This document shows, one piece after another, positions 1,054 to 19,237 of a stretch of DNA of 21,501 bases. The position numbers were made by a program, and so were the translations under genes. Position 1 is the stretch's first letter. The number at the start of each line of letters is the position of its first letter. This DNA is from a virus (Duplodnaviria; Heunggongvirae; Uroviricota; Caudoviricetes): IMG/VR virus record IMGVR_UViG_3300021388_000002. One strand, written 5' to 3'. The notes below the pieces were generated by a model that searched no databases, was not told the DNA's origin, and saw only the letters and a list, made by a program, of their open reading frames with translations.

Positions 1054-1070
1054 CCGCAGATCTGGCGCGC

Positions 1071-1168
1071 TACCGTTAAAAAACAGCAGTAACCGCGGCC
1101 GGGAAGCCACCGGAGCCGGGAATCCAGCCCTGGATCGACACGCCACTGGGAGGGACCCGGCTCCGGTC
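1071..1168 (+). promoter_or_regulatory. Putative -10 (TACCGT) and leader RNA motif copy 1 with competing anti-initiation helix
   Basis: CCG-CGG-CCGG-loop-CCGG-AGC-CGG at 1093-1119; 1109-1120 is a perfect 12-bp complement of 1156-1167, which lies between RBS and ATG. Confidence 0.7.
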
Positions 1169-2932
1169 ATGTCTGCGCTCGGATTCGTCCCGGATCTGTG
1201 GCTGCCCGATGGCTCGGTCCTGCGCGGGAGCGAGCAGCAGGCCGCGGTCACCGGCAGCCAGGTCCCGCGGTTCTGGACCGCGCCGGTCCGGCACCGGGAC
1301 AAGGACAGCGAGTGCGCCGCCTGCCGCAACCCCGATTACGCCTGCGGCTGCGGCAACTACCAGGCCACCGAGCTGCTGGAGTGGTGCCCGGCTTTCGGCT
1401 ATGACCTGGACCCGTGGCAGGAGTGGTGGCTGACCGAGGCCACCGGGACCCGGCCGGACGGGCGCTGGGCCGCGTTCGAGTGCATGCTGATCGTCAGCCG
1501 CCAGAACGGGAAGAACCAGTGCCTTGAGGTCCGTGAGCTAGGCGGTCTGTTCGTGTTCGGCGAGCGCATGCTGATTCACACCGCGCACGAGTTCAAGGCC
1601 GCGGCTGAGCATTTCCGCCGGGTCCGGGACACCATCACCGCCTACGATGAGCTGCGCAAGCGGGTCAAGGCCATCGCGACGTCCCACGGCGATGAGGCCA
1701 TTGAGCTGAAGCCCGCCCCGACCCTGATCTTCGGCGCGGCCGGCAAGATGATCCGCCGCAGCGTCGGCGGGCGGCTGCGCTTCCTGGCCCGCTCCCGCGG
1801 CTCGGGCCGGTCGTTCACCGCCGACTGCGTGGTCTACGACGAGGCCATGATCCTGAGCGACGAGCAGGTGGGCGCCTCGATGCCCACCATGTCGGCCGTG
1901 CCGAACCCGCAGATGATCTACACCGCCAGCGCGGGCTACCGGGACAGCCTGCAGCTCGGCTCGGTCCGCCGCCGGGTGCTGCGCGGCGATGACACCCTGA
2001 TGGGGGCCGAGTGGTCCATTAACGCGCACACTGACACCTGCCCGCGGGACGAGGTGGCGGGGCGGCGCAGCAACCGGTACATCGTCTGCGGGCTGCACGA
2101 CGACCGGGATGACCTGCACAGCTGGGCCCGGGCCAACCCCGCCTTCGGCACCCGGATCGCGCCGGCGCACATCGCCAAGGAACTGGCCTCCATGTCCGGC
2201 ACGACGTTCGACCGGGAGCGCCTGGGCGTCGGGGACTGGCCGAATGAGGACGAGGCCTGGGCGGTGGTCAGCGAGGAGCAGTGGCAGGCCTGTGCCCTGC
2301 CCGACCCGGGCGGCGCGACCCGGCCGGTGACCTTCGCGGTGGACGTGGACCCGGACATGCTCTCCGCGACGATCGCCGCGGCCTGGTACCGGCCCGAGCC
2401 GGGCGAGCCCCGTGCGCAGGCCCGGCCGGTGGTGGAGATCCCGCAGGGCTGCCACCGCGAGGGCACGTCCTGGGTCATCCCCCGGCTGGCCGAGCTGCGC
2501 CGGGCCTGGCGCCCGCACGCGATCGTCATCCCGAAGAACGGCCCGGCTGCCTCGCTGGTGGATGAGGCCGAGCGGATGGGGATCGAGGTCACCCGGGCGG
2601 TCAGCGGCGATGAGGCTGCCGCCTTCGGGCTCATGGTCCGCTCGATCCGGGCCGAGGTGGTGGACGGCAAGCCGAGCCCGCGGCTCATCCACCTCGGCCG
2701 CGCGAACGCGCCAGGCCTGTGGACCTCGATTGCCAGCGCGGAGACCCGCGACGTCGGGGACGGCGGCCGGGCCTGGTCCCGCCGGGACAGCGAGGCGGAC
2801 ATCACCCCGGTGACCGCCGCCACACTGGCCCTGTGGGCGCTGAACAAGACGCGGCGCGCGTATGACCCGGCCCGCTCGATCGCGCCGCCCAGCCGGGTCC
2901 AGGGCGCGCCTGACTGGATGGCGGGGGCGTGA
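1169..2932 (+). CDS. terL: Terminase large subunit
   Basis: LDPWQ, Walker A VSRQNGKN, HTAHEF, Walker B VVYDEA, YTAS coupling motif, WARANP, RERLG, nuclease FAVDVD and C-terminal DITPVTAATLA; upstream of portal. Confidence 0.95.
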   Translation: MSALGFVPDLWLPDGSVLRGSEQQAAVTGSQVPRFWTAPVRHRDKDSECAACRNPDYACGCGNYQATELLEWCPAFGYDLDPWQEWWLTEATGTRPDGRWAAFECMLIVSRQNGKNQCLEVRELGGLFVFGERMLIHTAHEFKAAAEHFRRVRDTITAYDELRKRVKAIATSHGDEAIELKPAPTLIFGAAGKMIRRSVGGRLRFLARSRGSGRSFTADCVVYDEAMILSDEQVGASMPTMSAVPNPQMIYTASAGYRDSLQLGSVRRRVLRGDDTLMGAEWSINAHTDTCPRDEVAGRRSNRYIVCGLHDDRDDLHSWARANPAFGTRIAPAHIAKELASMSGTTFDRERLGVGDWPNEDEAWAVVSEEQWQACALPDPGGATRPVTFAVDVDPDMLSATIAAAWYRPEPGEPRAQARPVVEIPQGCHREGTSWVIPRLAELRRAWRPHAIVIPKNGPAASLVDEAERMGIEVTRAVSGDEAAAFGLMVRSIRAEVVDGKPSPRLIHLGRANAPGLWTSIASAETRDVGDGGRAWSRRDSEADITPVTAATLALWALNKTRRAYDPARSIAPPSRVQGAPDWMAGA

Positions 2933-3004
2933 ACGGCGTGCCCCGGGTGCGCAAACTGTATGGCGTCTTCGCATTCTGGCTGTTTTAAGCACGCATGCGG
3001 GGGA

Positions 3005-3195
3005 TATGCTCTGGGAACGCGCGGTGAGTGGGGTGAGCTGTCTTCCCGGGCCGTGCAGGGACGCACTCTGGCTCACCAGGGCGGGTGGTGCAGCAGGCAG
3101 TGGCCGCACCGAACGGCAGCGGTGCCGGGGTGCGTCCCGCGGGAACTGCGCCGGATCGCGACCCCACCCCCAACGCGATCCGGCGCACTTCTTTT
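3005..3195 (+). ncRNA. Candidate structured ncRNA (~180 nt) with own -10 and terminator
   Basis: TATGCT 3005-3010; 15-bp helix 3058-3072/3124-3138 with two G-U pairs enclosing two hairpins; 6-bp helix 3043-3048/3140-3145; terminal terminator. Confidence 0.5.
3147..3195 (+). terminator. Intrinsic terminator
   Basis: Perfect 14-bp inverted repeat TGCGCCGGATCGCG/CGCGATCCGGCGCA, 13-nt C-rich loop, then CTTCTTTT. Confidence 0.8.
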
Positions 3196-3217
3196 CCCCG
3201 GGGCTTATTCTCAGATC

Positions 3218-3366
3218 ATGCGCCGCCGGGAAGATCTCTGTGCCAGGCTGTTGGCCGGGCGCGAGGCCGCCGTCTGGCCGTGCAGGGCCAGCTCAGCGCC
3301 TTCGTGCGGGACGAGGTCCGCCGCGAGACCGAGCGCATGGAAGCAGACTTCACGAAGGAGAGCTGA
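3218..3366 (+). pseudogene. Small frameshifted ORF (about 49 aa if one C is restored near 3274)
   Basis: ATG 6 nt after TATTCT (leaderless-like); GC3 bias switches frame at GTC/CTG 3272-3276; ends in TGATG overlap with next gene. Confidence 0.35.
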
Positions 3367-3641
3367 TGACGACCCTGGCTGACGCCATCCCGGTGGACCG
3401 CCTGCAGGGCCAGGCCACGCAGGCCCGGCCCGGCCGCGTCATCGCCACCGTCATCACGGCGGTCTTCGTCGGCGTGGGCTGGGTGCCCGGCGCCCTGTGG
3501 CGCTCGCTGGCGTTCATCGCCGTCAGCGTCCGGTACGGCTGGCTGCGCGGCCGGGGGCTGACCGATGAGGACATTGCCGCCCGCGCCGCTGCCCGCGCTG
3601 CCCCGGCGCCAGCACCGCCGCCACCCGGCCCGCGCGCCTGA
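3366..3641 (+). CDS. Hypothetical membrane protein (91 aa)
   Basis: AAGGAG RBS; hydrophobic VIATVITAVFVGVGWVPGALWRSLAFIAVSV; Pro-rich tail. Confidence 0.75.
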   Translation: MTTLADAIPVDRLQGQATQARPGRVIATVITAVFVGVGWVPGALWRSLAFIAVSVRYGWLRGRGLTDEDIAARAAARAAPAPAPPPPGPRA

Positions 3642-3669
3642 GCATCCTCCCGGGCCTGGAGGGGGGATC

Positions 3670-4383
3670 GTGAGCGCTGCCGCAACCCTGGCCGTGCATC
3701 ACCCGCACGTCACTGCTGTCCACGCCGTGCTGCTGCTGCACCCCGCTACCGTGAAGCTCATCCGCACGGTGCTGGCCGCGGTGGCCGGGCGCAAGCCGAA
3801 GGTCTCGGTGGTCACCCCGACCTGGCGGCGCGCCCGGCTGCTGCTGAACCGGTGCATCCCGAGTGTGCAGGCCCAGACCTACCGCGGCGAGATCGAGCAC
3901 ATCATCGTCAGCGACGGGCCAGATCCCGCGCTCGATCACATACCAGGCGTGCACCAGCTGGCCGAGCACCGGCTGTGCGTCAACCGCGGCGTGTGGGCCC
4001 GGCTGGCGGGCACCGAGCTGGCCACCGGGGAGATCTTCGCCTACCTGGATGATGATAACGCCTGGCGCCCGCGGCACCTGGAGGTGCTGGTGGACGCGAT
4101 CACCGCCAGCGGGGTCAGCTTCGCTTACAGCCAGGCCCTGTGCCAGTCCGACACCGGCCTGCGCTGGGTGATCGGCTGCAACCGGCCGGTGTTCGCCCAG
4201 ATCGACACGTCCCTCATCGTGCACAACGCCGGGCTGCTGGAGACCGCCACCTGGGAGCCGTCCGGGCGCCCGGCGGACTGGCACCTGGTGGACCGCTGGC
4301 TGGCCGCCGGGGCGACCTGGGCGCACGTCCCGGAGATCACCCTGGACTATTACGCGCGCCGGGCAGCCGCTACCGTGACATGA
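3670..4383 (+). CDS. Glycosyltransferase family 2 (GT-A fold)
   Basis: GGAGG RBS; VSVVTPTW, SVQAQTY, IIVSDG, GEIFAYLDDDN (DxD), ADW motif. Confidence 0.9.
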   Translation: MSAAATLAVHHPHVTAVHAVLLLHPATVKLIRTVLAAVAGRKPKVSVVTPTWRRARLLLNRCIPSVQAQTYRGEIEHIIVSDGPDPALDHIPGVHQLAEHRLCVNRGVWARLAGTELATGEIFAYLDDDNAWRPRHLEVLVDAITASGVSFAYSQALCQSDTGLRWVIGCNRPVFAQIDTSLIVHNAGLLETATWEPSGRPADWHLVDRWLAAGATWAHVPEITLDYYARRAAATVT

Positions 4384-4410
4384 GACCCCACTGCCCGAGG
4401 AGCCACTGCC

Positions 4411-4617
4411 ATGCCCCTGACCAAACGACCTGCCCCGGACGGCACGTTCGAGCTGCTGCGCGGCGGCAAGGTGATCGCCCGCGGCCTGTCCGAGCTGGAT
4501 GCCGACGTCCAGATCGCGGGTGACCGGGGCGAGACCGGCCCGCCGCAGGACAGCAAGCCCGGCACCGCCGATGACCCGGCCGGGGCCGCTGCGGGCGGCC
4601 GGAAGGACAGCAAGTAG
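4411..4617 (+). CDS. Hypothetical protein (68 aa)
   Basis: GAGGAG RBS; GC3 bias. Confidence 0.65.
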   Translation: MPLTKRPAPDGTFELLRGGKVIARGLSELDADVQIAGDRGETGPPQDSKPGTADDPAGAAAGGRKDSK

Positions 4618-4619
4618 CC

Positions 4620-4931
4620 GTGCCCGGCGAGGACAAGCCCGTACGCAAGTACGAGGTGCAGGATGACCCTGCCCATAAAGGCCGGTTCCGGGTGGTGGAC
4701 ACCACGCAGCACGGCCCGGACGGCGGCCCGGACGTCAAGGGCGCCAACATGGACAAGACCACGGCGACGAAGCAGTGGCGCCTGCTGGAGGCGGTGGAGC
4801 ATGACCCGGGTTTCCGGCCCGCCCCGGGTGTGCCCAGCACCCTGAAGCACACCCCCGGGCCTGGCAAGCTGCCGGGCAGCGGGTACAGCAAGACGCCGCC
4901 CGGCGGGGGCCGCCACTACGGGAACAGCTGA
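4620..4931 (+). CDS. Hypothetical protein (103 aa)
   Basis: GC3 bias; TGATG overlap with next ORF. Confidence 0.65.
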   Translation: MPGEDKPVRKYEVQDDPAHKGRFRVVDTTQHGPDGGPDVKGANMDKTTATKQWRLLEAVEHDPGFRPAPGVPSTLKHTPGPGKLPGSGYSKTPPGGGRHYGNS

Positions 4932-5068
4932 TGCCGCGCGACCCGGTGCCCTGCAGATGCGGGCACACCGCTTTCGCGCACGAGCACTACCGGCCGGGCT
5001 CAGAATGCTCGATTGCCGGCTGTGAGTGCCGCCGGTTCCGGCGCAAGTGGTGGCGCTGGCTGGCGTGA
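4931..5068 (+). CDS. Small Zn-finger-like protein (45 aa; not in ORF track)
   Basis: MPRDPVPCRCGHTAFAHEHYRPGSECSIAGCECRRFRRKWWRWLA; CxCxH..HxH..C..CxC; coupled start. Confidence 0.65.
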   Translation: MPRDPVPCRCGHTAFAHEHYRPGSECSIAGCECRRFRRKWWRWLA

Positions 5069-5138
5069 GTTCCCGGGAAACCGGGCGATTCCCGCGTCAG
5101 CCGGGAAGATCTGATCGCTAAACCGGCCTGACGTGGCG

Positions 5139-5210
5139 TAACCTGATCACAGCAACACCCGTGGCCGGAACGGAGCCGGGTACCACCCCGTTCCGAGGAG
5201 TTCCGGCCCC
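5139..5210 (+). promoter_or_regulatory. Putative -10 (TAACCT) and leader RNA motif copy 2
   Basis: ACCCG-UGG-CCG-GAA-CGG-AGC-CGGGU 5157-5181; alternative pairings 5166-5173/5188-5195 and 5163-5170/5201-5208 flank RBS GAGGAG 5195-5200. Confidence 0.7.
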
Positions 5211-5336
5211 GTGGGGCTGATCGAGCGTATCCGCCACAGCACCGGCCTAGCCCGCCGTGCTGGCAGTGCGCTCTTTTTCGTGCCGCCTGCTCTCCTGCGT
5301 AGCCGGGGGGAGGTGGTTGGCCATGGGTCTCATTGA
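5211..5336 (+). CDS. Putative leader peptide (41 aa) starting with the same MGLIERI as the portal
   Basis: GTG after GAGGAG; open to TGA 5334-5336, overlapping portal ATG 5323. Confidence 0.5.
   Translation: MGLIERIRHSTGLARRAGSALFFVPPALLRSRGEVVGHGSH
5223..5278 (+). terminator. Attenuator-like hairpin plus U-tract within the leader ORF
   Basis: GAGCGUAU/GUGCGCUC, GCCA/UGGC and GCA-CGGC/GCCG-UGC helices followed by TTTTT 5274-5278. Confidence 0.6.
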
Positions 5337-6988
5337 GCGTATTCAGGCAAGTCGTGCTGAGTCTCGCGTTATTGGTGGGGTGCCCTGGCGATTAACGCCC
5401 GTGGGACTCGCCGTTTTTCCGCTTCTCGCAAGGCGGGCCGGTTCACCCGGTGCGGTCGTTCTACGGCAAGGACGAGGCGCTGGGCCTGCCCGCGCTGTAC
5501 GCCGGCTGCCGCTTGCTGGCCGACTCGGTGGCCTCGCTGCCGCTGAAGGTCTACACCCGGGCCACCCGGGACGGGCACGCCATCCGGTACGGCGGCCCGA
5601 CCATTTTCGACGCGCCCTCGGTGACTGGCACGCTGTTCGACTGGCTGTTCACCGCCATGACGAGCCTGGTGCTGCAGGGTAACGCCTGGGGCTTCATCAC
5701 CGGCCGCGACGGCTTCGGCTTCCCGAACGGGATCGAGTGGATTCCGCCCGAGGACGTCATCGTGGCCGACGATGAGCAGCAGCCGTGGAACCCGCTGCGG
5801 AGCCGGATCTACGTCTACGGCCGGCTGATGGACCGCTCGGAGCTGTTCCACATCAAGGCGTTCAGCCTGGCCGGCCGGACCGAGGGGATCAGCCCGCTGC
5901 GCGCGTTCGCGCTGACGATCCTGGCGGGTACCGAGGCGCAGCGCTACGGCACCGACTGGTACAAGGCGGGCGGGTTCCCGCCGGGGACCTTCCAGAACAA
6001 CGAGATCGAGATCGACGCCGATCAGGCCGAGCAGATCCGCGCGACGCTGTCGGCGACGATCCGCAGGCGTGAGCCCCTGGTCTACGGCCGGGACTGGGAT
6101 TACAAGCCGGTCACGGTGCCGCCGAACGAGGCGCAGTTCATCCAGGCCATGCAGATGAACGCCACCCAGATCGCCGCCGTGCTCGGGCTGCCGCCGGACC
6201 GCCTGGGCGGCACCCGCGGGGACAGCCTGACGTACTCGACGGTGGAGCAGTCCACGCTGCAGATCATCGAGGCGCTGCGCCCGTACGTGGTGCGGCTGGA
6301 GCACGCCTTTTTCCAGCTCATCCCGGCCAACCGCTACGTCCGGTTCAACACCGACGCGCTGCTCAAGACCGACCTGAAGACGCGCACCGACATCTACCAG
6401 ATCCAGCGCAACATCGGCCTGCGCACCACTGATGAGCTGCGCGACCTGGAAGACCTGGAGCCGCTGCCCGGCGCGTCCGGCGGGGAGAACATCCCGCTGG
6501 AGGTCATGGTGGCGATGTCGCGCTCGATCCGCGGTATCCCGAACTCGATGCTGTCCGCCATCACGCTGGAGATGGACCTGGCCACCGACCGGCTGCAGCA
6601 GCTGGAGAAGGAGGGCCTGGCCGCCGACTCGGGCCAGCCGATCCCCGGCCCGGAGCAGATGCTGGGCCAGGTCATCGAATCCCAGCGCGGCACGGCACCG
6701 GACCTGCGCGACGTCCGTGATATAGCTGGTGCCTTCCGGCAGCTCGGCATTGATCTTCCAGGTGAGATCATCAGCTCTCTTGCCAGGGAATATGGCCGCT
6801 TCGCGCCCGGTAAGTCCGGGTCCCGCGGGCGGTGGGGGAAAGAGCCCGAGTTCGTGGGCGCCTGGATTCCGTCCCGGCACGAGCTGGTGCTGGACGGGGC
6901 GAACTCGGCTAACGGGAACGGCCACGGCAGCCCTGATGGTGGCGGCGGGCATGGCCTGAACGGAGTCAATGGGTGGTCGCATGAGTGA
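5323..6988 (+). CDS. Phage portal protein (HK97 family), frame-interrupted at 5389-5398; about 552 aa if 7 nt are bypassed
   Basis: ALYAGCRLLADSVASLPL, LVLQGNAW, ELFHIK, GISPL, AQFIQ, IAAVLGLPP, YSTVEQ, TTDELRDLEDLEP; strong RBS GGAGGTGG before ATG 5323, whose frame differs from the main 5396-6988 frame. Confidence 0.93.
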
Positions 6989-7196
6989 GATCGCACGGGA
7001 TCGGCTGGCCTGGTGGGACTACGCCCAGCGCTCCAGGTTCGAGGAGCGCCGCGCCAGTGGCGTCTATGCGCACAACCAGCCGGGTGAGCAGCAGGAAGAT
7101 GCGTCCCTGCGGGATCTGCACGGGGCCCTGCTGAGTGTCATGGAACCAGAGCCGGTTGATGACGAGCCGGACCAGATCAGGACAAGAAGGCATTGA
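6981..7196 (+). CDS. Hypothetical protein (71 aa)
   Basis: ATG overlaps portal end; fills gap to protease. Confidence 0.55.
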   Translation: MSEIARDRLAWWDYAQRSRFEERRASGVYAHNQPGEQQEDASLRDLHGALLSVMEPEPVDDEPDQIRTRRH

Positions 7197-7223
7197 TATG
7201 CCGCGTGAGAGGGGTGTTGCGTA

Positions 7224-8234
7224 ATGGCCGATATGAGCAGCGCGGCGATCAATGATCTCCCGGATTCTGCTTTTGCTTTCATCGAGCCCGGAGGCGCGAA
7301 AGACGCCAGTGGCAAGACAACGCCACGGAGCAAGCGTCACTTTCCTGTGCATGATGAGGCTCACACCCGGAATGCCCTGAGCCGGGCGCCGCAGAGCCCG
7401 TTCGGCAAGCAGGCCATGCCGAAGATCATGAGCGCTGCGAAGAAGTTCGGCATCAACGTCTCCGGTGACCAGCGCGCCGCGTTCGGCATCGTGGAGATGG
7501 ACGGCTGGCCCGAGCGCCGGTTCACCCGGTTCCCGCCGGAGATCCGCCAGCAGCGCGACGGCGGCCCGACCACCATCTACGGCTACGCCGCCGCGTTCGG
7601 CAAGCTGAGCCGCAAGCTCGGCGGGTTCGTGGAGCAGGTGGACCCGCGCGCGTTCAACGAGTCCAAGACCGAGGGCTGGCCGGACGTGGTGTGCCGGTAC
7701 AACCACAAGGACGACATGCTGCTCGGCACCACCTACGCCCGGACACTCCGGCTGGCGCTGGATGACACCGGCCTGGCGTATGAGGTCCAGCCGCCGCAGG
7801 CCCGCTCGGACGTGCTGGAGTACGTGGCCCGCGGCGACGTGCGGCACAGCTCGTTCGCCTTCCGGGTGTTCCCCGGCGGGGACGAGTGGGGTGTCTCGGA
7901 GTTCAACTACCCGATGCGGACGCTCCTGTCGGTGCAGCTGGTCGATGTCGCGCCCGTGCTCGACCCGGCCTACCCGGATGCCACCAGCGGCGCACGGGCC
8001 ATGAACGGCGCGATCGAGTCCCTGGCGGGCTGGGTCCAGGGTGATGTGGAGGAGGTCCGCGCCCGGGTCAATGAGGGCCGGGCCATGGAGTTCTTCAAGC
8101 GCACGGACAACGCCGGCCCCGCGAAGAAGGACAGTACCCGCCAGCGGCAGGCGCCGAAGCCTGCCATGACGGGCGCGCAGGCCCTGCTCGCTCTGCAGGG
8201 CAACATGGAAGACCCCTGGGCGGACGAGGATTAG
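7224..8234 (+). CDS. HK97-family prohead maturation protease with extra N-terminal domain
   Basis: GYAAAFG, FVEQVDPRAF, YNH, GLAYEV, RGDVRHSSFAF, LVDVAPVLDPAYPDA; N-terminal ~80 aa LPDSAFA..RHFPVHD..HTRNAL resembles DUF6582 (from recall). Confidence 0.92.
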   Translation: MADMSSAAINDLPDSAFAFIEPGGAKDASGKTTPRSKRHFPVHDEAHTRNALSRAPQSPFGKQAMPKIMSAAKKFGINVSGDQRAAFGIVEMDGWPERRFTRFPPEIRQQRDGGPTTIYGYAAAFGKLSRKLGGFVEQVDPRAFNESKTEGWPDVVCRYNHKDDMLLGTTYARTLRLALDDTGLAYEVQPPQARSDVLEYVARGDVRHSSFAFRVFPGGDEWGVSEFNYPMRTLLSVQLVDVAPVLDPAYPDATSGARAMNGAIESLAGWVQGDVEEVRARVNEGRAMEFFKRTDNAGPAKKDSTRQRQAPKPAMTGAQALLALQGNMEDPWADED

Positions 8235-8274
8235 CCAGCTCAGGGCGTAAAACCGTACACAAGTAAAGAGATCT

Positions 8275-8358
8275 GCTGAGGCCGTAGCTGCCGCCGGTAT
8301 GGACGGAGCCAGTGCAGATGCCATCACGAGAGGAGAACATCGTGGCATCTGAAGTGGC
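8275..8358 (+). promoter_or_regulatory. Leader RNA motif copy 3 with start-codon-sequestering hairpin
   Basis: GCUG-AGG-CCGU...ACGG-AGC-CAGU 8275-8313; CAGAUGCCA 8315-8323 pairs UGGCAUCUG 8343-8351, extended by GCCA 8308-8311/UGGC 8355-8358. Confidence 0.65.
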
Positions 8359-9601
8359 CAAGCGCCTCCGCGACAGGCGGCAGAACGTCTGGAACGACGC
8401 CAAGGGGATCGCCGAGCAGGCGGCCCAGGAGAACCGTGCCCTGACCGATGAGGAGCAGGGCCGGTGGGACGCGATGCAGGAGGAGATGTCCAAGCTGGAC
8501 ACCCGCATCCGCGCCGTCCTGGACACCGAGAAGCGGGCCAAGGAGGCCGACGACGCGTTCGACGCGCTGTCCGGCCGCAAGCCCGACCAGGGCCAGGCCC
8601 AGCGCACCGCCGGGGGCTCCCGGATGCTGGAGGAGGTCCGCAAGTGGGCCCGCGGCGAGGAGGGTGCGTCCCGGCACCTGGAGATCCGCCGTGACCCGGC
8701 CCTCGGCCCAGTCAACTACCGTGTCCTGACCACGGGGTCACAGGGCACAAACGCCAGCAGTATCGTGCCGACTGACTTCTACGACATGCTGATCGCACAC
8801 CTGATCGAAGTGTCCGGGGTCATGCAGTGCGGGCCTACCGTGATCAACACGGGCGGCGGCGAGACGCTGCAGGTGCCCAAGACCACGGCGCACTCCACCG
8901 CGGCCTCGGCGGCCCAGGCGGGCACGATCCCGACCTCGGACCCGGCGTTCAGCATGCAGCCCCTGTCGGCCTGGAAGTACGGCATCATGCTGCAGGTCGC
9001 GCGGGAGCTGATCGATGACACCGCCGTGGACCTGCTTGGCTACCTGGCCATGCAGGCAGGCCGGGCGCTCGGCAACGCGTTCGGCAACGACCTGGTCAAC
9101 GGCTCCGGCAACAGCCAGCCGGCCGGCATCGTGACCACCGCCACGACCGGCGTGACCGGCTCGGTGACCGGCGTGTCCGGCAGCCCCAGCTACGCCAACC
9201 TGGTGGACCTGGAGTACTCGGTCATCGCTCCCTACCGCCAGTCGCGCAGCTGCTACTGGCTGGCGGCGGATAAGACGATCGGTTCCTTCAGGAAGATCAC
9301 CGACACGGTCGGCCGCCCGATCTGGGAGCCGTCCGCGGTGCTCGGCAGCCCCGACCTGCTGCTCGGCAAGCCCCTGGTGGCCGATCCGTTCATGCCGGCC
9401 CTGGCCACCAGCGCCAAGTCCATCGCGTTCGGTGACTTCAGCCAGTACTTCGTCCGCCTGGTCGGCGGGGTCCGGTTCGAGCGCAGCGATGACTTCGCGT
9501 TCGGCTCTGACCTGGTGACCTTCCGCGCGATCCTGCGCGGCGACGGCACCCTGGTTGACCGCACAGGCGCGATCAAGGTGTTCCAGGGCGCGTCCAGCTA
9601 A
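8342..9601 (+). CDS. Major capsid protein, HK97 fold, with N-terminal coiled-coil delta/scaffold domain (419 aa)
   Basis: AGGAG RBS before GTG 8342; ENRALTDEE, IVPTDF, VARELIDD, NGSGNSQPAGI, GRPIW, LLGKPLV, IAFGDFS, FRAILRGDG. Confidence 0.95.
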   Translation: MASEVAKRLRDRRQNVWNDAKGIAEQAAQENRALTDEEQGRWDAMQEEMSKLDTRIRAVLDTEKRAKEADDAFDALSGRKPDQGQAQRTAGGSRMLEEVRKWARGEEGASRHLEIRRDPALGPVNYRVLTTGSQGTNASSIVPTDFYDMLIAHLIEVSGVMQCGPTVINTGGGETLQVPKTTAHSTAASAAQAGTIPTSDPAFSMQPLSAWKYGIMLQVARELIDDTAVDLLGYLAMQAGRALGNAFGNDLVNGSGNSQPAGIVTTATTGVTGSVTGVSGSPSYANLVDLEYSVIAPYRQSRSCYWLAADKTIGSFRKITDTVGRPIWEPSAVLGSPDLLLGKPLVADPFMPALATSAKSIAFGDFSQYFVRLVGGVRFERSDDFAFGSDLVTFRAILRGDGTLVDRTGAIKVFQGASS

Positions 9602-9608
9602 CCAGGCC

Positions 9609-9657
9609 CGTCCCCCGGCCGTGTCACGAACGTCGGCGATGGCGCGGCCGGGGGGCG
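9609..9657 (+). terminator. Strong hairpin after capsid gene (terminator or mRNA stabiliser)
   Basis: 18-bp stem 9609-9626/9640-9657 with three G-U pairs; no U-tract. Confidence 0.6.
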
Positions 9658-9673
9658 CTCCACGAGAGGAGCC

Positions 9674-10741: not shown

Positions 10742-10756
10742 ATCAGACCCCGGCGT

Positions 10757-10824
10757 TATGCTGGGTAGCAGGAAGAACCGCCCGCGGCCTACTGGGAGCC
10801 GGGCTCCAGATGACAGGAGCCCAG
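10757..10824 (+). promoter_or_regulatory. Putative -10 (TATGCT) and leader RNA motif copy 4
   Basis: GCCCG-CGG-CCU-ACU-GGG-AGC-CGGGC 10780-10804; competing GGGCUCC 10801-10807/GGAGCCC 10816-10822 covers the RBS. Confidence 0.7.
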
Positions 10825-11388
10825 ATGGCTAACAGCAGCCAGGTCCCCGGCTACGACGGCACCCGCCGCACGACAGGCGGGAACCCGCCGTACTCGGGTG
10901 TTCAGCAGGGCGGGGACCCCACCACCGAGCCCGGCCAGTACCCGCCGCCGGACCAGAACGCCTTTTTCGGCGGCCCGCTGCCCACCAGTACCGGAGCCCC
11001 CGGCACCCAGGGCGCGCGCGGCACCGGCAGCGTGGACCCGACCAACGAGCCGGGCCAGACCACCGACAGCCTGACCGGGCTGCCCGCCTCCGACGTCGCC
11101 AGCACGGGCGCGCCCGGCTCGCCCGGCGCCGACCCCAGCCTGGGGTCCGGGCCGGACTCGGTCACCATCACCCGGCCGGGCAGCTACCTGTCCGGCAGCA
11201 ACGCGCAGGACACCGTGCGCGCGGCGGTGTCCGGGCCGGGCGACTGGACCCAGGCCAACAACGAGGGCTACGGCAGCGACGCGAACCAGCTGCCCGGCCT
11301 GAAGGGCAACCAGCCGGCGCCTGGCGGCCGGTTCCAGCCCGGCGGCGGCGGCCAGGTGCTGCGCGGCGGCCGGGCCGTCCGGGGCTGA
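10825..11388 (+). CDS. Gly/Pro/Ser/Thr-rich protein with internal repeat (187 aa)
   Basis: AGGAG RBS; DPT(T/N)EPGQ x2 and STGAPG(T/S)xGA x2. Confidence 0.75.
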   Translation: MANSSQVPGYDGTRRTTGGNPPYSGVQQGGDPTTEPGQYPPPDQNAFFGGPLPTSTGAPGTQGARGTGSVDPTNEPGQTTDSLTGLPASDVASTGAPGSPGADPSLGSGPDSVTITRPGSYLSGSNAQDTVRAAVSGPGDWTQANNEGYGSDANQLPGLKGNQPAPGGRFQPGGGGQVLRGGRAVRG

Positions 11389-11390
11389 CC

Positions 11391-11699
11391 GTGGTGTTCA
11401 CGTCCGGTACCCGCGAGGTCGGTGCGGAGGCGGCGGTGCGGCTGTGCGCCGTGCCGCCCGAGGGCGCCCTGGTCAAGAACCTGGGTGGCTCCCGCATCTA
11501 CCTCGGCGGGCCGGATGTGGGCACCGAAGGCGACGCGGCCGGGTTCCCGCTGGACGCGAGCGAGGCCCAGGTCATCACCGCGCCGCAGCCGCTGATGAGT
11601 TTCCGGACCCCGGCCCCGCCCGGTGATGGCGCTCCCGCGGTGCTGTACGCCCGGTCGGCGCAGGGGATCAGCAAGGTCGCGTTTCTCGTGGCCAGCTAG
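11391..11699 (+). CDS. Hypothetical small beta-rich protein, possibly virion-associated
   Basis: LVKNLGGSRIYLGGPDV...GFPL...LYAR; GC3 bias. Confidence 0.65.
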   Translation: MVFTSGTREVGAEAAVRLCAVPPEGALVKNLGGSRIYLGGPDVGTEGDAAGFPLDASEAQVITAPQPLMSFRTPAPPGDGAPAVLYARSAQGISKVAFLVAS

Positions 11700-11708
11700 G
11701 AGGAGCCC

Positions 11709-12011
11709 ATGGAAGACCTGACCCACCTGATCCCCAGCGACCCGATCACCGCGCTGGCCCCGACCTCGATGGCCGGCGGCAACATGATGAGCGACAACCG
11801 GTTCGCCATGACCGCGCCCGGCTCGCCGCCGGTTGACCCGCTGCCGCCCGCCAAGCAGCAGTCGGACCCCGAGATCGCCGCCAGCAACCCCGTGCCCGTC
11901 CGGACGGGCGACTCTGGCAAGCCGCGGGCCAGCGCAGCCCGGGGCGGCTGGCAGCCCGGTACCCCGTCCTGGGGCAAGACCACCACTCCCGGCGTCGTCC
12001 GGGAAAGCTAG
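11709..12011 (+). CDS. Hypothetical Pro-rich protein (100 aa)
   Basis: AGGAGGAG RBS. Confidence 0.7.
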   Translation: MEDLTHLIPSDPITALAPTSMAGGNMMSDNRFAMTAPGSPPVDPLPPAKQQSDPEIAASNPVPVRTGDSGKPRASAARGGWQPGTPSWGKTTTPGVVRES

Positions 12012-12020
12012 GAGGCAGTT

Positions 12021-12206
12021 ATGCCACGCGTTTCCGCCGACATCACGTCCACCCCGGAAGTCCCGGGCCAGCCGTACGACGCTACTACCGATGGCACCCT
12101 CGGCAAGTGGGCCTCGGTCAATGCCAACTCCGGCCCGGCTGACACCCGGACCGGCAATGCCACCGGCTCGTTCGAGGACGGCCCCGGTCCCTGGAAGCAG
12201 ACTTAG
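12021..12206 (+). CDS. Hypothetical protein (61 aa)
   Basis: AGGAGG RBS; ends WKQT-TAG at the HNH insertion junction. Confidence 0.7.
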   Translation: MPRVSADITSTPEVPGQPYDATTDGTLGKWASVNANSGPADTRTGNATGSFEDGPGPWKQT

Positions 12207-12774
12207 GCCGCGTGGCTGAGGCGGCAGTGCAGGTGCTTGCCCTTGCTGCTGTTACACGGCATGCAAAGAACCTGATAGCCAGGCGGAAACCCTGCTTTAA
12301 CCAGCCAGCGGTAGAAATGATGGCCGCCAATATCAGGCTGGCCGAGTACCGCTTGGCGGTGCTGTGCACCACCACCGTTGACGTGATCGATCGTAAGCCG
12401 GTGAGTAGCCCCACAGCAGGCACAAGATGGCGGCATCGTAGAGCTGTAGTGCGAGAGGACAGCCGCACGGGCAGCGTCGCGCCGATGTCGTTGCTGTTCG
12501 CGCTTGGCTCTCTGGCTGCTTTCCAGTACACGATAAGCCTTGGCCAGTTTGTGCACGGCGTCAGGGTTTTTCTCCCGGTAGCTGCGCGAGCTTTTATTGG
12601 CGCAATCTTTGCACCAGGCCGCGTGACCGTCAGGCCTGCCTGCGTGTTTGCCGAAGCCGGCGAGTACTTTAACGTCGCCGCATTTAGAACAGCGTTTGCG
12701 GGCAGGTTCGTTCACACTGCTAACTATATGACATGGAAGGAAGCAGATATGACAAGCTCAGATAGGAAGCAGAC
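12193..12774. mobile_element. Lower-GC HNH cassette flanked by 10-bp direct repeats GGAAGCAGAC
   Basis: Repeats at 12193-12202 and 12765-12774; removing the cassette restores TGG AAG CAG ACG TGA with a GTGA overlap to the next gene. Confidence 0.7.
12203..12715 (-). CDS. HNH homing endonuclease with N-terminal Zn ribbon
   Basis: KRCSKCG..WCKDC; CACCG..LTIDHVNGGG..YQVLCMPCNSSKG; minus-strand TATAGT (12723-12728) 7 nt before GTG suggests a leaderless mRNA. Confidence 0.88.
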   Translation of the reverse strand: MNEPARKRCSKCGDVKVLAGFGKHAGRPDGHAAWCKDCANKSSRSYREKNPDAVHKLAKAYRVLESSQRAKREQQRHRRDAARAAVLSHYSSTMPPSCACCGATHRLTIDHVNGGGAQHRQAVLGQPDIGGHHFYRWLVKAGFPPGYQVLCMPCNSSKGKHLHCRLSHAA

Positions 12775-12939
12775 GTGAGCGACCTCGCCCGCGTCTACGC
12801 GCCTGGCAAGGAGCTGGGCCTGGTCTCCGGCTCAGCCGCCGCCAACGCGGCCGGGTCCGGGGTGCCGCAGCCCGCCGGGAAAGAGCTGGCGCACGCTGGC
12901 AACGCCGGGCTGGCCCGGGCCACGGACGCCGACCGGTGA
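12775..12939 (+). CDS. Hypothetical protein (54 aa; not in ORF track)
   Basis: MSDLARVYAPGKELGLVSG...GKELAHAG...DADR; GTGA overlaps at both ends. Confidence 0.65.
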   Translation: MSDLARVYAPGKELGLVSGSAAANAAGSGVPQPAGKELAHAGNAGLARATDADR

Positions 12940-13136
12940 GCCTGGCCCAGGCCACTGGCGTCTTCATCTCGGCCGCCGGGGGTGCCAATGGCATCCTGGT
13001 GCTGGTCGCGCTGATCCTGTTCGCGGTCGCCGCGTTCCTGGCGGGCACCCTCACCTCCACCGCCCGGCCCTGGTGGGCCATCCTGGTGTCCGCCGGGCTG
13101 GCGGTGGCTATGCTCGCGCTGCTCGTGGGCAGCTGA
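12936..13136 (+). CDS. Small two-TM membrane protein
   Basis: GILVLVALILFAVAAFLAG and WWAILVSAGLAVAMLALLVG. Confidence 0.7.
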   Translation: MSLAQATGVFISAAGGANGILVLVALILFAVAAFLAGTLTSTARPWWAILVSAGLAVAMLALLVGS

Positions 13137-13137
13137 C

Positions 13138-13677
13138 GTGGCGCTGCCTGACCTGAGCGGCCTGGTGCAGTACAAGGCCCTGCCGTTCGCTCCCGGGTAC
13201 CCGCCGGAGGCGCTGACGTTCTACTCCCCGGTCGATGACGTGCCCGGGGTGCTGAAGGCGCTCATCGCCTCGGCCGCCAAGTCCCTGATAATCGCGATGT
13301 ACGGGTTTGACGACCCGGATCTGGCCGCCATCATCCACGGCAAGCTGGCTGACCCGGGATGCTTCGTGCAGCTGACCCTGGATTCCAGCCAGGCCGCCGG
13401 CGCGCACGAGAAGGAGCTGCTGGCTAAACAGGATTATCCGGCCAATTCAGTGGCGGTCGGCCGCTCTGAGAAGGGTGCGATCCTTCACCTGAAATTGGCT
13501 ATAATAGATGGTGTAGATACTGTTACCGGATCTACAAACTGGAGCGTAAGCGGGGAGACGCTGCAGGATAATCAGCTCACTGTTATCCGGTGTCCGTATG
13601 TTGCGGCTGAAGCGCGCGCCCGTGTTGACGTCATACACACCAGCTGCCTGCAGCAAATGGCAAGGGGTGCTAAGTGA
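13138..13677 (+). CDS. Phospholipase D superfamily (Nuc-like, single HKD) nuclease
   Basis: SLIIAMYGF; HLKLAIID (HxKxxxxD); GSTNWS; QDN. Confidence 0.9.
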   Translation: MALPDLSGLVQYKALPFAPGYPPEALTFYSPVDDVPGVLKALIASAAKSLIIAMYGFDDPDLAAIIHGKLADPGCFVQLTLDSSQAAGAHEKELLAKQDYPANSVAVGRSEKGAILHLKLAIIDGVDTVTGSTNWSVSGETLQDNQLTVIRCPYVAAEARARVDVIHTSCLQQMARGAK

Positions 13678-14207
13678 AACCGTGTTCTATGTGCGGCCTG
13701 CCAACGACATCACAATATGAAATGTGCCAGCGATCGGGTGCTTGCAGCCAGGCATATCGTGCAAAATGGGCTCGGGAACAGCCGAAGGAACGGCGCAATG
13801 AAGTAGTCCGTCGCTGGCGGCAAGGCCGGCAGAAGGGTGCGCCGCACGTTTACGGTATCTGGTTCCCCGCGCCACAGGTGCTGAAAGTAGGCTTCACGGC
13901 CAATACATCTGGTGCGATATATCTGGGTACAGCGCGCCAGGGTGCCAAACGCCGGGGCTGGAAGACTGAAGATAGTTCATGCATCTGGCGGCGCCAAGGC
14001 GATGTGCGTACAGAGGCGTGGTTGCAGGCGACGCTAGCCTTCAGATGGCCTGGCGCGGCAGAAAAGCGCCAGAACCGGATTTGTGAGTGGTTCGCTGTGC
14101 CTGGGCTTCTGGAGGAGGAGATCGCTGCGACTCTTGATGCTGTATACGGCCTGGTGCCTGCTGACCTGATTGCCGTCCAGATGGCCCGGGTGGCGAAGGC
14201 GCCGTGA
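13674..14207 (+). CDS. GIY-YIG-like (T5orf172/MUG113-type) putative homing endonuclease with N-terminal Cys cluster
   Basis: HVYGI..LKVGFT..EAWLQ..EWF; lower GC than flanks. Confidence 0.65.
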   Translation: MKPCSMCGLPTTSQYEMCQRSGACSQAYRAKWAREQPKERRNEVVRRWRQGRQKGAPHVYGIWFPAPQVLKVGFTANTSGAIYLGTARQGAKRRGWKTEDSSCIWRRQGDVRTEAWLQATLAFRWPGAAEKRQNRICEWFAVPGLLEEEIAATLDAVYGLVPADLIAVQMARVAKAP

Positions 14208-14665
14208 ATGAGCCCCGGCAGATGACCCAGACCGCGCCGTACCCGCAGATCCTGGCCGACCTGGTAAGCAAGCTCAGCTACCGTGAGCACCTGGGCTGGA
14301 AAGTCTGGCTGGATGACGACCTGCAGCGCGACAAGCCCGGCCGGCACGCCGGGGAGTCCCGCGGGCTGACCCTGGTGGTGCTGCGGGTGGGCCCGGACAC
14401 CTACAATCCGGGAACCGTCCTGCAGGTCGTGCACTACTTCCCGGTGCCGCCCGCCACCTATGATGAGCCGTCCTGGCTGCGGTGGCTGTTTGATCAGCTC
14501 GGCAAGGTCGATGATCACGAGCGGATGGAAGACTTCGTGATCGGCGGCCAGCGCCCGTTCGCGCCCATCCACAAGCCCGGCGCTGACCCGTACGCCCTGC
14601 GCCAGCTGTCCAGCTGGGATGAGGCAGACACTGATTTCCGCGGGGTCAGGAGCCACCCGCAATGA
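14204..14665 (+). CDS. Hypothetical phage protein (paralog A)
   Basis: VHYFPVPP..WLRWL..DHERMEDF..RPFAPIH. Confidence 0.75.
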   Translation: MNEPRQMTQTAPYPQILADLVSKLSYREHLGWKVWLDDDLQRDKPGRHAGESRGLTLVVLRVGPDTYNPGTVLQVVHYFPVPPATYDEPSWLRWLFDQLGKVDDHERMEDFVIGGQRPFAPIHKPGADPYALRQLSSWDEADTDFRGVRSHPQ

Positions 14666-14973
14666 TGGGCCTGGCCGAGCTGGAACGCGAGCTTGCCCAG
14701 TTCACTTACTGGCCGCGGTGGGGGTTCCGGCCGTACCTGGACACCCACCTCGGCCCGATGCTGTGGATTATCACCACCCAGCCGGACCGGGAGGACCCGG
14801 CTCGCACCATCGACCTGGGCATCAGGGTCCGCATCCCGCCACACGCCATGGAAACTCCTGACGCGCTCGGCCGCTGGCTGCTGTGGCGGATCGAGGAAGC
14901 GGCTATCCACGAAGTGCGGGAAGGCTTGCGGTACCGCGGCAAGCTGGTCGATGACCCGCACGCTGCCGGGTAA
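14662..14973 (+). CDS. Hypothetical phage protein (paralog B)
   Basis: VRIPP..LGRWL..IHEVREGL..LVDDPH; ATGA overlap. Confidence 0.75.
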   Translation: MMGLAELERELAQFTYWPRWGFRPYLDTHLGPMLWIITTQPDREDPARTIDLGIRVRIPPHAMETPDALGRWLLWRIEEAAIHEVREGLRYRGKLVDDPHAAG

Positions 14974-15009
14974 CCGCCGGAACGCGCGACACCGCCCGCT
15001 GCCGCTCGG

Positions 15010-15089
15010 TACGCTTAGCCCAGCTGGTACCCGTGGCCGGCGCTGCGCTGGAGCCGGGAACCTCCGTCACCACTGCCCGGAGGCCCGAC
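15010..15089 (+). promoter_or_regulatory. Putative -10 (TACGCT) and leader RNA motif copy 5
   Basis: CCCG-UGG-CCGGC-loop-GCUGG-AGC-CGGG 15030-15058; competing CGGG-AA-CCUCCG (15055-15066)/CGGAGG-CCCG (15078-15087) buries RBS GGAGG. Confidence 0.7.
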
Positions 15090-17211: not shown

Positions 17212-17218
17212 GAGAGCC

Positions 17219-17623
17219 ATGGCTGAGCTGACCGCCTATGGCAACGAGGCCCTGCGTGCCGGGGTGCGTGCCCTGATGACGCCGCCGCGGGTGGTGACCG
17301 CCGTCGCCCGGTTTCGCGCCGGGCCTGGCCGGGAGGACGAGGCCGCGGGCGCCTGGGCGTTCGAGATCACCTACTACTTCACCCGGGCGGTGGGCGAGGC
17401 CCCTGCCGTCACCTACGCGCCCGGCTGGCCGGGTGAGCCCGGCGTCTACACCTGCACCGGGCTCATGCAGACCACCCATCCCGGGGATCACGACCCCACC
17501 GATTTCACCCGCGAGGAGCCCTGGTCACTGGATTACGTGACGGGCGCGGTGCGGCGGGCGCAGCTGCGCAGCATGTATCCCAGACGCAAGATCTGGTACG
17601 ACGGGAGAGATCACGATGCCTGA
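17219..17623 (+). CDS. Hypothetical protein (134 aa)
   Basis: AGGAG RBS; GC3 bias. Confidence 0.7.
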   Translation: MAELTAYGNEALRAGVRALMTPPRVVTAVARFRAGPGREDEAAGAWAFEITYYFTRAVGEAPAVTYAPGWPGEPGVYTCTGLMQTTHPGDHDPTDFTREEPWSLDYVTGAVRRAQLRSMYPRRKIWYDGRDHDA

Positions 17624-19223: not shown

Positions 19224-19237
19224 GCGGCAGGTGCGCC

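Follow-up and report, generated by a model that had tools for sequence, protein, structure and literature searches.

A conserved RNA hairpin in the late-gene leaders of an uncultured high-GC phage as a candidate operator for common late regulation

Late-gene leaders and their shared hairpin

The window analyzed here is a stretch of 21,501 nt from the 164,420-bp record of an uncultured high-GC phage. It carries the genes for the large terminase, the portal protein and the major capsid protein, a post-capsid gene with its ATG at 10825 and a gene for an NAD-dependent epimerase starting with GTG at 15090, and the leader of each of these genes contains a copy of a short hairpin motif (Table 1). These five copies had been proposed in a first-pass annotation of the window, and all five were read where it had placed them. 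The exact 9-mer GGAGCCGGG occurs five times in the window, compared with 1.2 occurrences expected, and all five lie inside leaders. The covariance-model search suggested in the same annotation, performed with filters off on the entire 164,420-bp record, revealed eight motif copies scoring at least 23 bits, every one on the + strand of the window, and a clear score gap above the noise: the next-best match reached 19.7 bits, and matches near 19.7 bits were found on both strands. The genes behind the eight copies are those of the terminase, the portal, the major capsid protein, the post-capsid gene, two sugar-epimerase operons, an endolysin and a peptidase. The motif-led units, at least eight in this phage, are a late-function gene set, composed of structural, lysis or sugar genes in line with the late-gene regulon that had been postulated.

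Table 1. Hairpin copies, upstream hexamers, led genes and alternative pairing strands in the window.
Feature	Position	Strand	Basis or remark
-10-like hexamer TACCGT, copy 1	1071..1076	+	sequence read
Motif copy 1, terminase leader	1091..1121 (core 1093-1119)	+	covariance model 26.9-28.2 bits
Terminase anti-motif strand CCCGGCTCCGGT	1156..1167	+	between SD 1148-1154 and ATG 1169
Large terminase gene	1169..2932	+	phrog_9, E = 1.1e-62
-10-like hexamer TAACCT, copy 2	5139..5144	+	sequence read
Motif copy 2, portal leader	5157..5181	+	covariance model 34.7-36.9 bits
Short upstream ORF, copy of portal start (VGLIERI...)	5211..5333	+	sequence read
Portal gene	5323..6988	+	Pfam Phage_portal, E = 6.9e-52
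Motif copy 3, capsid leader	8274..8314	+	covariance model 23.1 bits
Capsid anti-start strand CAGATGCCAT	8315..8324	+	directly 3' of capsid motif
Major capsid protein gene	8342..9601	+	Pfam Phage_capsid, E = 8.4e-56
-10-like hexamer TATGCT, copy 4	10757..10762	+	sequence read
Motif copy 4, post-capsid leader	10780..10804	+	covariance model 32.3-34.6 bits
Post-capsid anti-SD hairpin	10801..10822	+	GGGCTCC (10801-10807) with GGAGCCC (10816-10822)
-10-like hexamer TACGCT, copy 5	15010..15015	+	sequence read
Motif copy 5, epimerase/sugar operon leader	15029..15059	+	covariance model 26.3-28.6 bits
Copy 5 alternative helix	15055..15087	+	CGGGAACCTCCG (15055-15066) with SD region CGGAGGCCCG (15078-15087), AA bulge

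In about 50 related IMG/VR contigs the same hairpin is found ahead of the same genes, and 91 of 91 motif matches in the relatives are located on the gene strand. An Rfam 15 cmscan of the whole window with E up to 1 yielded no match at any of the motif copies, which agrees with the earlier suggestion of an undescribed family; the sole Rfam match in the window was c4-a1b1 at 13264-13321, with 19.6 bits vs a gathering score of 46.7 and away from the motif copies.

In the folded motif, an outer stem of 4-5 bp leads into a symmetric 3x3 internal loop with 5'-NGG facing 5'-AGC, and two invariant C-G pairs close the inner stem above it. The cap varies in length (4-26 nt) as well as in sequence, and caps that contain insertions fold into helices of their own. 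Most copies comprise 6-9 base pairs in total. The covariation of the stems, which had been described for the window copies, was confirmed there and became much stronger with the relatives added: among 78 distinct sequences, 92.6% of the cells are paired vs 82.3% in shuffles, and none of 500 shuffles reached the observed value. All four Watson-Crick pairs are found at one outer-stem position; in the 78 sequences pair 5-72 is distributed as GC73/CG3/AU1/UA1 and pair 4-73 as CG67/UA8/UG3, both with zero unpaired cells. Across pairs 2-5 there are 15 G-U cells, a single A-G mismatch and no A-C. RNAalifold applied to a plain MAFFT alignment gives the same fold, and single-sequence folds concur. The reported invariance of the GG-CC...GG-AGC core also withstood the larger sample, as nine nucleotides, unpaired ones included, do not change in any of the 78 distinct copies, in contrast to the diverging flanks, and the N of the internal loop is C, U or A and was never found to be G. 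Judged from this conservation, the invariant internal loop resembles a recognition surface.

Upstream of the hairpin, a -10-like hexamer (TANNNT/TAnnCT) is present at a distance of 7-21 nt in 51 of 57 distinct leaders, compared with 3.3% in the background. In the window it precedes four of the five copies, as had been noted, and is missing before the capsid copy; the capsid copies of the phage's subclade have no -10 hexamer, but an A-rich stretch precedes them. No -35 or other upstream element is conserved among the 57 distinct leaders, so that the hairpin and the hexamer are the only regulon-specific conserved elements found. From this arrangement, the hairpin is probably located at the 5' end of the late transcripts; with an assumed start about 7 nt after the hexamer, 0-11 unpaired nt would precede it. 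No RNA runs containing this sequence were found. The 5' flank of the hairpin is A-rich and the leader following it is C-rich and G-poor, a compositional bias only, with no conserved linear box in the flanks.

Pairing of the motif with ribosome sites

The 3' end of the motif is separated from the start codon by 17-55 nt, and the Shine-Dalgarno sequence (SD) and the AUG are not overlapped. For each of the five window leaders, the first-pass annotation had drawn an alternative helix over or beside the ribosome-binding site (RBS). All five helices can be formed as drawn, of which only some exceed chance for GC-rich leaders, and those of copies 3 and 5 do not rise above the nulls. Compensatory changes are nearly absent from the alternative helices, as the motif supplies one of their sides and does not vary.

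The terminase leader contains a helix of 12 bp in which 1109-1120 is the perfect complement of 1156-1167. This helix is conserved in 13 relatives, RNAalifold returns it as the consensus for 13 terminase leaders, and the cross-pairing between motif and RBS in this leader exceeds a shuffled-motif null. In the post-capsid leader the anti-SD hairpin shares bases with the 3' strand of the outer stem, and the switch strand of copy 4 (the outer-stem 3' strand together with the 8 nt that follow it) ranks among the best 0.7% of the background. The helix of copy 5 is borderline against background (p about 0.08). The capsid copy has a CUG/CAG outer stem and a nested 17-nt upper hairpin and was aligned with 8 relatives; its CAGATGCCAT pairs with GTGGCATCTG (8342-8351) or alternatively with ATCTG (8271-8275), and the distant relatives L051 and L053 have another anti-start sequence aimed at the same capsid target. 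In the portal leader, the short ORF contains a terminator hairpin at about 5222-5272 and, directly after it, U5 (5273-5277), and the portal start at 5323 and the portal body from 5396 are in different frames (tblastn frame change). A duplicated portal start with hairpin and U-run is also present in the relatives L009, L018 and L039, while L017 has a short ORF and a hairpin with U4, a second GLIER-type start not being detected in the 230 nt examined. In these five phages the attenuator extends over codons 4-7 of the motif-led ORF.

With 138 other ribosome sites of the genome as background, the switch strand shows higher complementarity to the ribosome site of its own leader in 57% of 54 leaders, which come from related phages and are not independent samples. 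Excess complementarity is found in the terminase leaders, most post-capsid leaders, the endolysin leaders and one portal subfamily, and none in the capsid, VGLIERI-type portal and second-epimerase leaders. The predicted accessibility of the ribosome site is 0.36 for motif-led genes, close to the value of 0.42 for the genome background of 138 other genes; forcing the motif raises the predicted mean from 0.36 to 0.47, and in terminase leaders from about 0.2 to 0.33-0.67. When whole leaders are folded, the predicted minimum is up to about 29 kcal/mol below the motif fold, and in one leader the two are equal. The RBS-occluding fold is partly supported by these models: of the ON-switch logic that had been proposed, the part concerning the terminase and several other families stands above background, whereas occlusion is not general.

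Candidate operator function and its rivals

We propose, with a probability of roughly 40%, that the conserved late-leader hairpin is an operator for a putative trans-acting factor that gives common late regulation, most likely via release of the RBS. The recognition site would comprise the invariant internal loop and the two adjacent C-G pairs, and the reader would be a trans-acting factor, most simply a phage protein produced earlier in infection, which would impose late regulation after transcription has started. By the most likely route, the bound factor would lock the outer stem, and the 3' strand of the locked stem together with the pyrimidine-rich tail would be kept off the SD/start region, turning translation on. 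The wiring appears clearest in the terminase leader, where the 3' half of the motif is perfectly complementary to the sequence separating the SD from the AUG. Several portal leaders have the terminator built on the first codons after the motif-led start, and ribosome binding there might cause read-through; moreover, a 5'-proximal hairpin would be expected to slow 5'-end-dependent decay. No candidate binding protein emerged, as searches of the genome for CsrA, CSD, sigma70_r2, WhiB and T7-type RNA polymerase gave no match. In a more far-reaching version, which we regard as doubtful, the hairpin alone would define the late set and a phage RNA-binding protein would activate the translation of every virion, lysis and virion-glycosylation operon at once. 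If this were true, late timing in this clade would be set after transcription start and not at the promoter, and ribosome-sensitive attenuators would switch late-operon transcription as well.

Bacterial mRNAs are stabilized by 5'-terminal hairpins, and it is conceivable, albeit unlikely, that the motif is only a 5'-end stabilizer or processing mark against 5'-end-dependent RNase E/J attack and exerts no translational switching. The hairpin would then reside near the 5' end of the primary transcript, or of a fragment cut in the capsid A-rich tract, which fits with the 0-11 unpaired nt ahead of it under the assumed start, the A-rich 5' flank, the subclade capsid copies that follow an A-rich stretch without a -10, and an RBS occlusion that is not general. 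However, a hairpin of generic protective function would not require a particular sequence, whereas nine nucleotides are invariant here and N is never G, and the conserved terminase anti-motif, positioned exactly between SD and AUG, is left unexplained. That same anti-motif bears on the rather unlikely reading of the hairpin as a nut/put-like loading site, at which the nascent hairpin, alone or together with a phage factor, would modify RNA polymerase shortly after the promoter to read through terminators inside long late operons: both the anti-motif and the portal terminator are placed with respect to start codons, a positioning that suggests ribosomes and not polymerase. The hairpin directly downstream of each promoter-like element, the strong hairpin and U-run terminator after the motif in portal leaders of five phages, and the C-rich, G-poor tract resembling a Rho-loading tract would suit control of elongation; yet most leaders have no terminator between motif and gene, eight promoters per genome lessen the need for processive antitermination, a boxA-like second element is not conserved and the cap is variable, unlike that of boxB.

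The evidence for a sequence-specific factor would serve equally for a repressor operator of translation or stability, as known from T4 RegA and the RNA-phage coat protein, through which a host or early phage protein silences late messages until it is titrated or degraded. Unbound leaders are not strongly occluded, and the default state could therefore be ON. This reading is nevertheless quite improbable: the hairpin, 17-55 nt ahead of the start codon, leaves SD and AUG uncovered, so that a bound protein would not block the ribosome directly, and stabilizing the terminase hairpin is predicted to free the RBS. If a small molecule or ion instead bound the internal loop and stabilized the outer stem, the motif would be a very small riboswitch, for which an invariant internal loop between covarying stems and the alternative pairings with the expression region in several leaders could be quoted. 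We judge it very improbable in view of only about nine invariant nucleotides with no sign of tertiary contacts, the absence of a match to Rfam riboswitches, an expression platform that is not general, and no obvious metabolite common to capsid, terminase, lysis and sugar genes. The first-pass annotation had also named a DNA operator as an alternative. A DNA role as downstream promoter element, operator or extruded hairpin would account for the fixed position near the -10-like hexamer and the high conservation of both arms, but the compensatory changes inside single sites, the tolerance of G-U and lack of A-C, which fit the sense strand only, and arms 4-26 nt apart argue for a strand-specific RNA structure and render it extremely improbable. 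The inserted caps making their own helices, and a T7/N4-type RNA polymerase not detected in the genome (a weak search, whose control matched in no genome), point in the same direction.

Comparison with known systems

In phage T4, RegA and RegB exemplify one phage factor acting on many messages via a short RNA signal near the 5' end, with RegA sites being unstructured and overlapping the start codon, and RegB recognizing GGAG and cleaving early messages. Unlike in these regulons (reviewed in PMC3014915), the signal described here is a structured hairpin upstream of late genes. The SAS/ESAS elements of Cluster K mycobacteriophages and Cluster EF Microbacterium phages, for which a translational function was suggested, are like our motif short one-orientation repeats before many gene starts (PMC3203893, PMC7302621). 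SAS is a 13-bp asymmetric box, GGGATAGGAGCCC, at the RBS of non-structural genes, 3-7 bp from the start (PMC3203893), and ESAS consists of an inverted repeat around a variable spacer, with arm changes that do not support RNA pairing (PMC3203893, PMC7302621). Identity with SAS/ESAS was rejected, as the motif lies 17-55 nt before the start of late genes and shows clear covariation. GGAGYCC at the RBS is present in six genes, only one of which is motif-led, and is not specific to motif-led genes.

The boxB of lambda N/nut and the put sites of HK022 are small structured RNAs just after the promoter that act on the same transcript; boxB is read via its loop and paired with boxA, put consists of two stem-loops of about 70 nt, and there are two sites per genome. 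Our motif is likewise a small structured RNA next to a promoter-like element and is proposed to act in cis. A nut site (boxA and boxB) was rejected on the grounds of the variable cap, the conserved internal loop and the flanks without a conserved box, and most leaders here, unlike those of lambda and HK022, have no terminator. A T7-type RNase III site, with its internal loop set in a duplex of about two helical turns, was rejected, as most copies have only 6-9 bp in all. A kink-turn, i.e., a 3-nt one-strand bulge followed by tandem sheared G-A/A-G pairs, was rejected for the symmetric 3x3 loop NGG/AGC without tandem GA/AG. In stem IIB of the HIV-1 Rev response element, the major groove is widened at a purine-rich loop to admit an arginine-rich helix. 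The motif resembles it, as a resemblance only, in having an internal loop rich in purines, in which G-A and G-G oppositions are probable, and flanking G-C pairs, and differs in the order of oppositions, the lack of a bulged U and the unrelated biology.

In the Com/mom system of phage Mu, a late-gene hairpin competes with an RBS-hiding fold, and a phage protein binding the hairpin turns translation on. The terminase leader has the same wiring, as predicted from sequence and folding. While Mu Com uses one site, one gene and a known zinc-finger protein, the phage described here has eight sites per genome, an invariant internal loop, and occlusion in some leaders only.

The late-leader hairpin and the genes it precedes

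The window corresponds to the minus strand of bases 24,917–46,417 of an IMG/VR virus record that is 164,420 bp long and has direct terminal repeats, and its G+C content is ~70%. No match was obtained when the window was compared with 50,697 phage records by megablast, and the capsid protein shares at most 32% identity with those of cultured phages, so the close relatives of this phage are without any literature. The protein atlas and a portal-protein scan of bacterial genomes gave no usable host clue; we infer that the GGAGG-type ribosome sites and the −10-only TANNNT promoters are typical of Actinomycetota. A search of sequencing runs for the stretch turned up a single DNA run, which shares a small part of its words, and no RNA run. 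A sub-threshold Rfam match to c4-a1b1 (19.6 bits, E = 0.63) in a low-GC stretch at 13264–13321 is probably due to chance.

Genes of the window and the leader hairpins ahead of them (window positions)
Feature	Position	Leader hairpin	Remark
Large terminase	1169–2932	1093–1119	
Portal protein	start region 5323–5400	5157–5181	frame-split
Prohead protease	7224–8234		
Major capsid protein	8342–9601	8275–8313	
Conserved post-capsid gene	10825–11388	10780–10804	
NAD-dependent epimerase	15090–16049	15030–15058	first gene of sugar-modification block

All five hairpins which the first-pass annotation had placed in these leaders could be read in the sequence. Every window copy contains an outer stem of 4–5 pairs (GCCCG/CGGGC and variants), a symmetric internal loop in which 5'-NGG-3' faces 5'-AGC-3', and an inner stem that opens with two C-G pairs and ends in a variable cap, the size of the hairpin being 25–45 nt. 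In the window the 9-mer GGAGCCGGG is found five times vs. 1.2 times expected; four of these occurrences are motif copies, and the other one, a reverse complement, makes up the anti-motif of the terminase leader. A covariance model was built from 35 copies and then rebuilt from 91 hits. Applied to the whole genome with filters off, it returned exactly eight hits of at least 23 bits, all on the plus strand of the window, while the next-best matches on either strand reached 19.7 bits at most. Outside the window, the remaining three copies lie ahead of a GH25 endolysin that has a peptidoglycan-binding domain, of a second nucleotide-sugar epimerase and of a peptidase (phrog_16701); all eight led genes are of late-type function, as had been proposed for a late-gene regulon. 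A portal-protein scan of IMG/VR identified 49 related loci (51–86% identity), in which the model found 91 hits at E up to 1, all on the gene strand and ahead of the same gene families. Further contigs came from a pattern scan of the entire IMG/VR, in which leader-context copies were found only beside these families. Pattern matches in prophages of isolate genomes were rejected, as they lie inside long open frames, are without −10 or start codon and mostly have G as the first base of the NGG loop strand (N). The motif has no match in Rfam 15, in line with the annotation, which had not recognised it as a described family, and no description of it was found in the literature searched. Moreover, the late-leader hairpin is carried by two separate nucleotide-sugar epimerase operons (window 15090–20855 and G000:C1:3896–4972) that include a C-methyltransferase and glycosyltransferases, and this suggests that the sugar modification is expressed alongside the virion genes.

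A strand-specific RNA structure behind a −10-like hexamer

The enlarged alignment comprises 101 hits representing 78 distinct sequences, to which the following counts refer. Standard pairs fill 92.6% of the cells compared to 82.3% in shuffles, none of 500 shuffles being as high, and sliding the partner columns reduces pairing to 20–56%. The pair closing the internal loop is GC in 73, CG in 3, AU in one and UA in one sequence, and the adjoining pair is CG in 67, UA in 8 and UG in 3, without any unpaired cell at either position; the stem covariation read from only five copies thus holds in the wider set, including compensatory pairs. In pairs 2–5 there are 15 G-U cells and a single A-G mismatch but no A-C, a pattern in keeping with RNA of the sense strand and not of its complement. 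The same fold was obtained by RNAalifold on a plain MAFFT alignment and by minimum-energy folding of single copies, and long caps fold into helices of their own. The invariant core proposed earlier is retained as nine unchanged nucleotides: G7, G8, C9 and C10 and, on the 3' side, G, G, A, G and C. N is C in 45, U in 15 and A in 18 sequences and never G, a result repeated for the leader-context copies of a pattern scan in which N was left free. An alternative register with a G7-C27 pair and a bulged A was rejected, since C27 covaries with G5 while G7 is invariant. A trans-acting antisense RNA was likewise discarded, because, apart from the terminase leader, there is no enrichment of the 9-mer's reverse complement. 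The motif is a real, strand-specific and clade-wide leader RNA marking late operons.

In 51 of 57 distinct leaders a TANNNT hexamer with the consensus TAnnCT ends 7–21 nt (mostly 11–16 nt) before the hairpin, compared to 3.3% of random positions. Within the 35 nt upstream of the hexamer no position exceeds 0.5 bit in these leaders, so that there is neither a conserved −35 nor a conserved activator site. A or G is enriched 7–8 nt past the hexamer, and if the hexamers are promoters, the hairpin would start within about ten nt of the 5' end. The observation that all window copies except that of the capsid follow such a hexamer extends to relatives, as the capsid copies of this subclade lack it and lie behind an A-rich tract. 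In the most distant relatives, the IMG/VR loci L051 (13600–13650) and L053 (13590–13640), the capsid hairpin follows a canonical TTGTCA-17-TACTAT/TATTAT promoter. According to the bases behind them, the −10-like hexamers (window 1060–1095 and 15010–15020, many relatives) fall into two classes, TACGCT-TAG in terminase and epimerase leaders and TATCCT/TATGCT-GGG in post-capsid leaders. The hairpin is flanked by an A-rich 5' side and by a pyrimidine-rich, G-poor 3' side (YCC). A simple consensus scan for sigma-70 promoters and terminators was uninformative in such GC-rich DNA.

Possible alternative folds over ribosome sites and the portal leader

It had also been claimed that in every copy part of the motif can pair over or beside the ribosome-binding site or start. 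All five helices exist (1109–1120/1156–1167, 5163–5170/5201–5208, 8308–8323/8343–8358, 10801–10807/10816–10822 and 15055–15066/15078–15087). The terminase helix is a perfect 12-bp duplex of the motif 3' half with the spacer between Shine-Dalgarno (SD) sequence and AUG. It is the RNAalifold consensus of 13 diverged terminase leaders, in which the sequence between the strands is unconserved, and it shows little compensatory change because its motif side is invariant. In the capsid leader an anti-start strand lies directly 3' of the motif, CAGAUGCCAU pairing with GUGGCAUCUG; L051 and L053 use a different anti-start sequence for the same target, and in four of nine capsid leaders the strand can instead lengthen the outer stem via AUCUG on the 5' side. 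By partition function, motif-ribosome site pairing exceeded a shuffled-motif null in the terminase family, some post-capsid leaders, the portal leader of the window and the peptidase leader; capsid, epimerase and endolysin leaders were not above this null. The switch strand, defined as the 3' strand of the outer stem plus up to 8 nt, was ranked for complementarity to its own ribosome site against a background formed by the sites of 138 other genes. The own site falls within the best 10% in 57% of 54 leaders, the excess residing in terminase, most post-capsid and endolysin leaders and one portal subfamily, with epimerase leaders borderline. Forcing the motif raises predicted ribosome-site accessibility from 0.36 to 0.47 on average and from about 0.2 to 0.33–0.67 in terminase leaders; unconstrained, motif-led genes (0.36) are close to other genes (0.42). 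Within the full leader, the motif fold is less stable than the predicted minimum by up to about 29 kcal/mol, the two being equal in one leader, and RNAduplex comparison with shuffled ribosome sites gave only modest z-scores (mean −1.5). From the four quantitative tests, occlusion is recurrent but not universal. A SAS-like ribosome-site box was rejected, as GGAGYCC is not specific to motif-led genes.

In relatives the portal ORF (VGLIERIQASR...) begins right after the motif-led ribosome site. At window 5211–5333 and in the related loci L009 (7061+), L018 (783+) and L039 (4133+) a duplicated portal start (SD, GTG and GLIERI codons) after the motif opens a short ORF. A second GLIER-type start was detected in the window, L018 and L039; none was detected within the 230 nt examined in L009 or L017 (1909+). 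L017 has the short ORF and a hairpin with U4. Codons 4–7 of the short ORF (GAG CGY AU; E-R-I) supply the 5' arm of a strong hairpin, which has a folding energy of −26 to −33 kcal/mol and finishes with AUGCGCUC and U4–6 (window, L009, L017, L018 and L039), its structure being conserved while its interior differs between phages. This putative terminator would be unable to form while a ribosome occupies the short ORF, so that initiation at the motif-led site would result in transcription running on into the real portal gene. Because the terminator is placed on the first codons of the short ORF, its position argues for ribosome binding as the step that may be regulated; it is compatible with direct antitermination as well. 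The portal gene itself is frame-split in the window, residues 1–23 of the relatives matching the frame of ATG 5323 and residues 23–512 the next frame from 5396, with seven extra nt around CGA-TTAA-CGC at the frame change; an assembly error, a real frameshift or a bypass may account for the split.

Readings of the motif and comparison with known systems

With a probability of roughly 40%, the motif acts as an operator that frees ribosome sites when bound by a factor. When the genome was searched in six frames, no sigma70 region 2 (sigma70_r2), WhiB, CsrA or cold-shock domain (CSD) came up, and no T7-type RNA polymerase either, the last of these results carrying little weight since the search control gave no match in any genome. 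That the hairpin only stabilises the transcript is rather unlikely, and control of elongation, to which antitermination at the portal would belong, somewhat more so; the hairpin as operator of a repressor is improbable and a riboswitch is a still more distant prospect. An element acting as DNA is hardly credible, as the spacing of the arms varies from 4 to 26 nt, both arms of single sites co-vary and wobble occurs on one strand only.

The usual account of phage late genes is that they are switched on at the promoter, through sigma factors, activators or antiterminators. Within the present clade of large soil phages no late-specific element was found upstream of the −10, and the TAnnCT hexamer and the hairpin are the only conserved elements found to front the late units. 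If a factor reads the hairpin, this RNA would be a compact and portable tag by which high-GC bacteria could be made to co-ordinate expression, and RNA family databases would gain an entry. The timing of virion production in uncultured actinophage-like viruses becomes concretely approachable through loop mutants and the terminase anti-motif, and the motif is a simple marker of late operons in metagenomic contigs of this clade.

The nearest described repeats in actinophages are the Start-Associated Sequences (SAS) and their extended form (ESAS) of Cluster K and Cluster EF phages, which differ from the motif in sequence, start distance and gene class and are without support for RNA pairing. The modeled arrangement of the terminase leader may be likened to that of Com/mom in phage Mu. 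The nut and put sites are alike in their position after the promoter, whereas the motif differs from them in its variable cap and in having no second conserved box. Finally, the internal loop appears to resemble the purine-rich loop of the HIV RRE.
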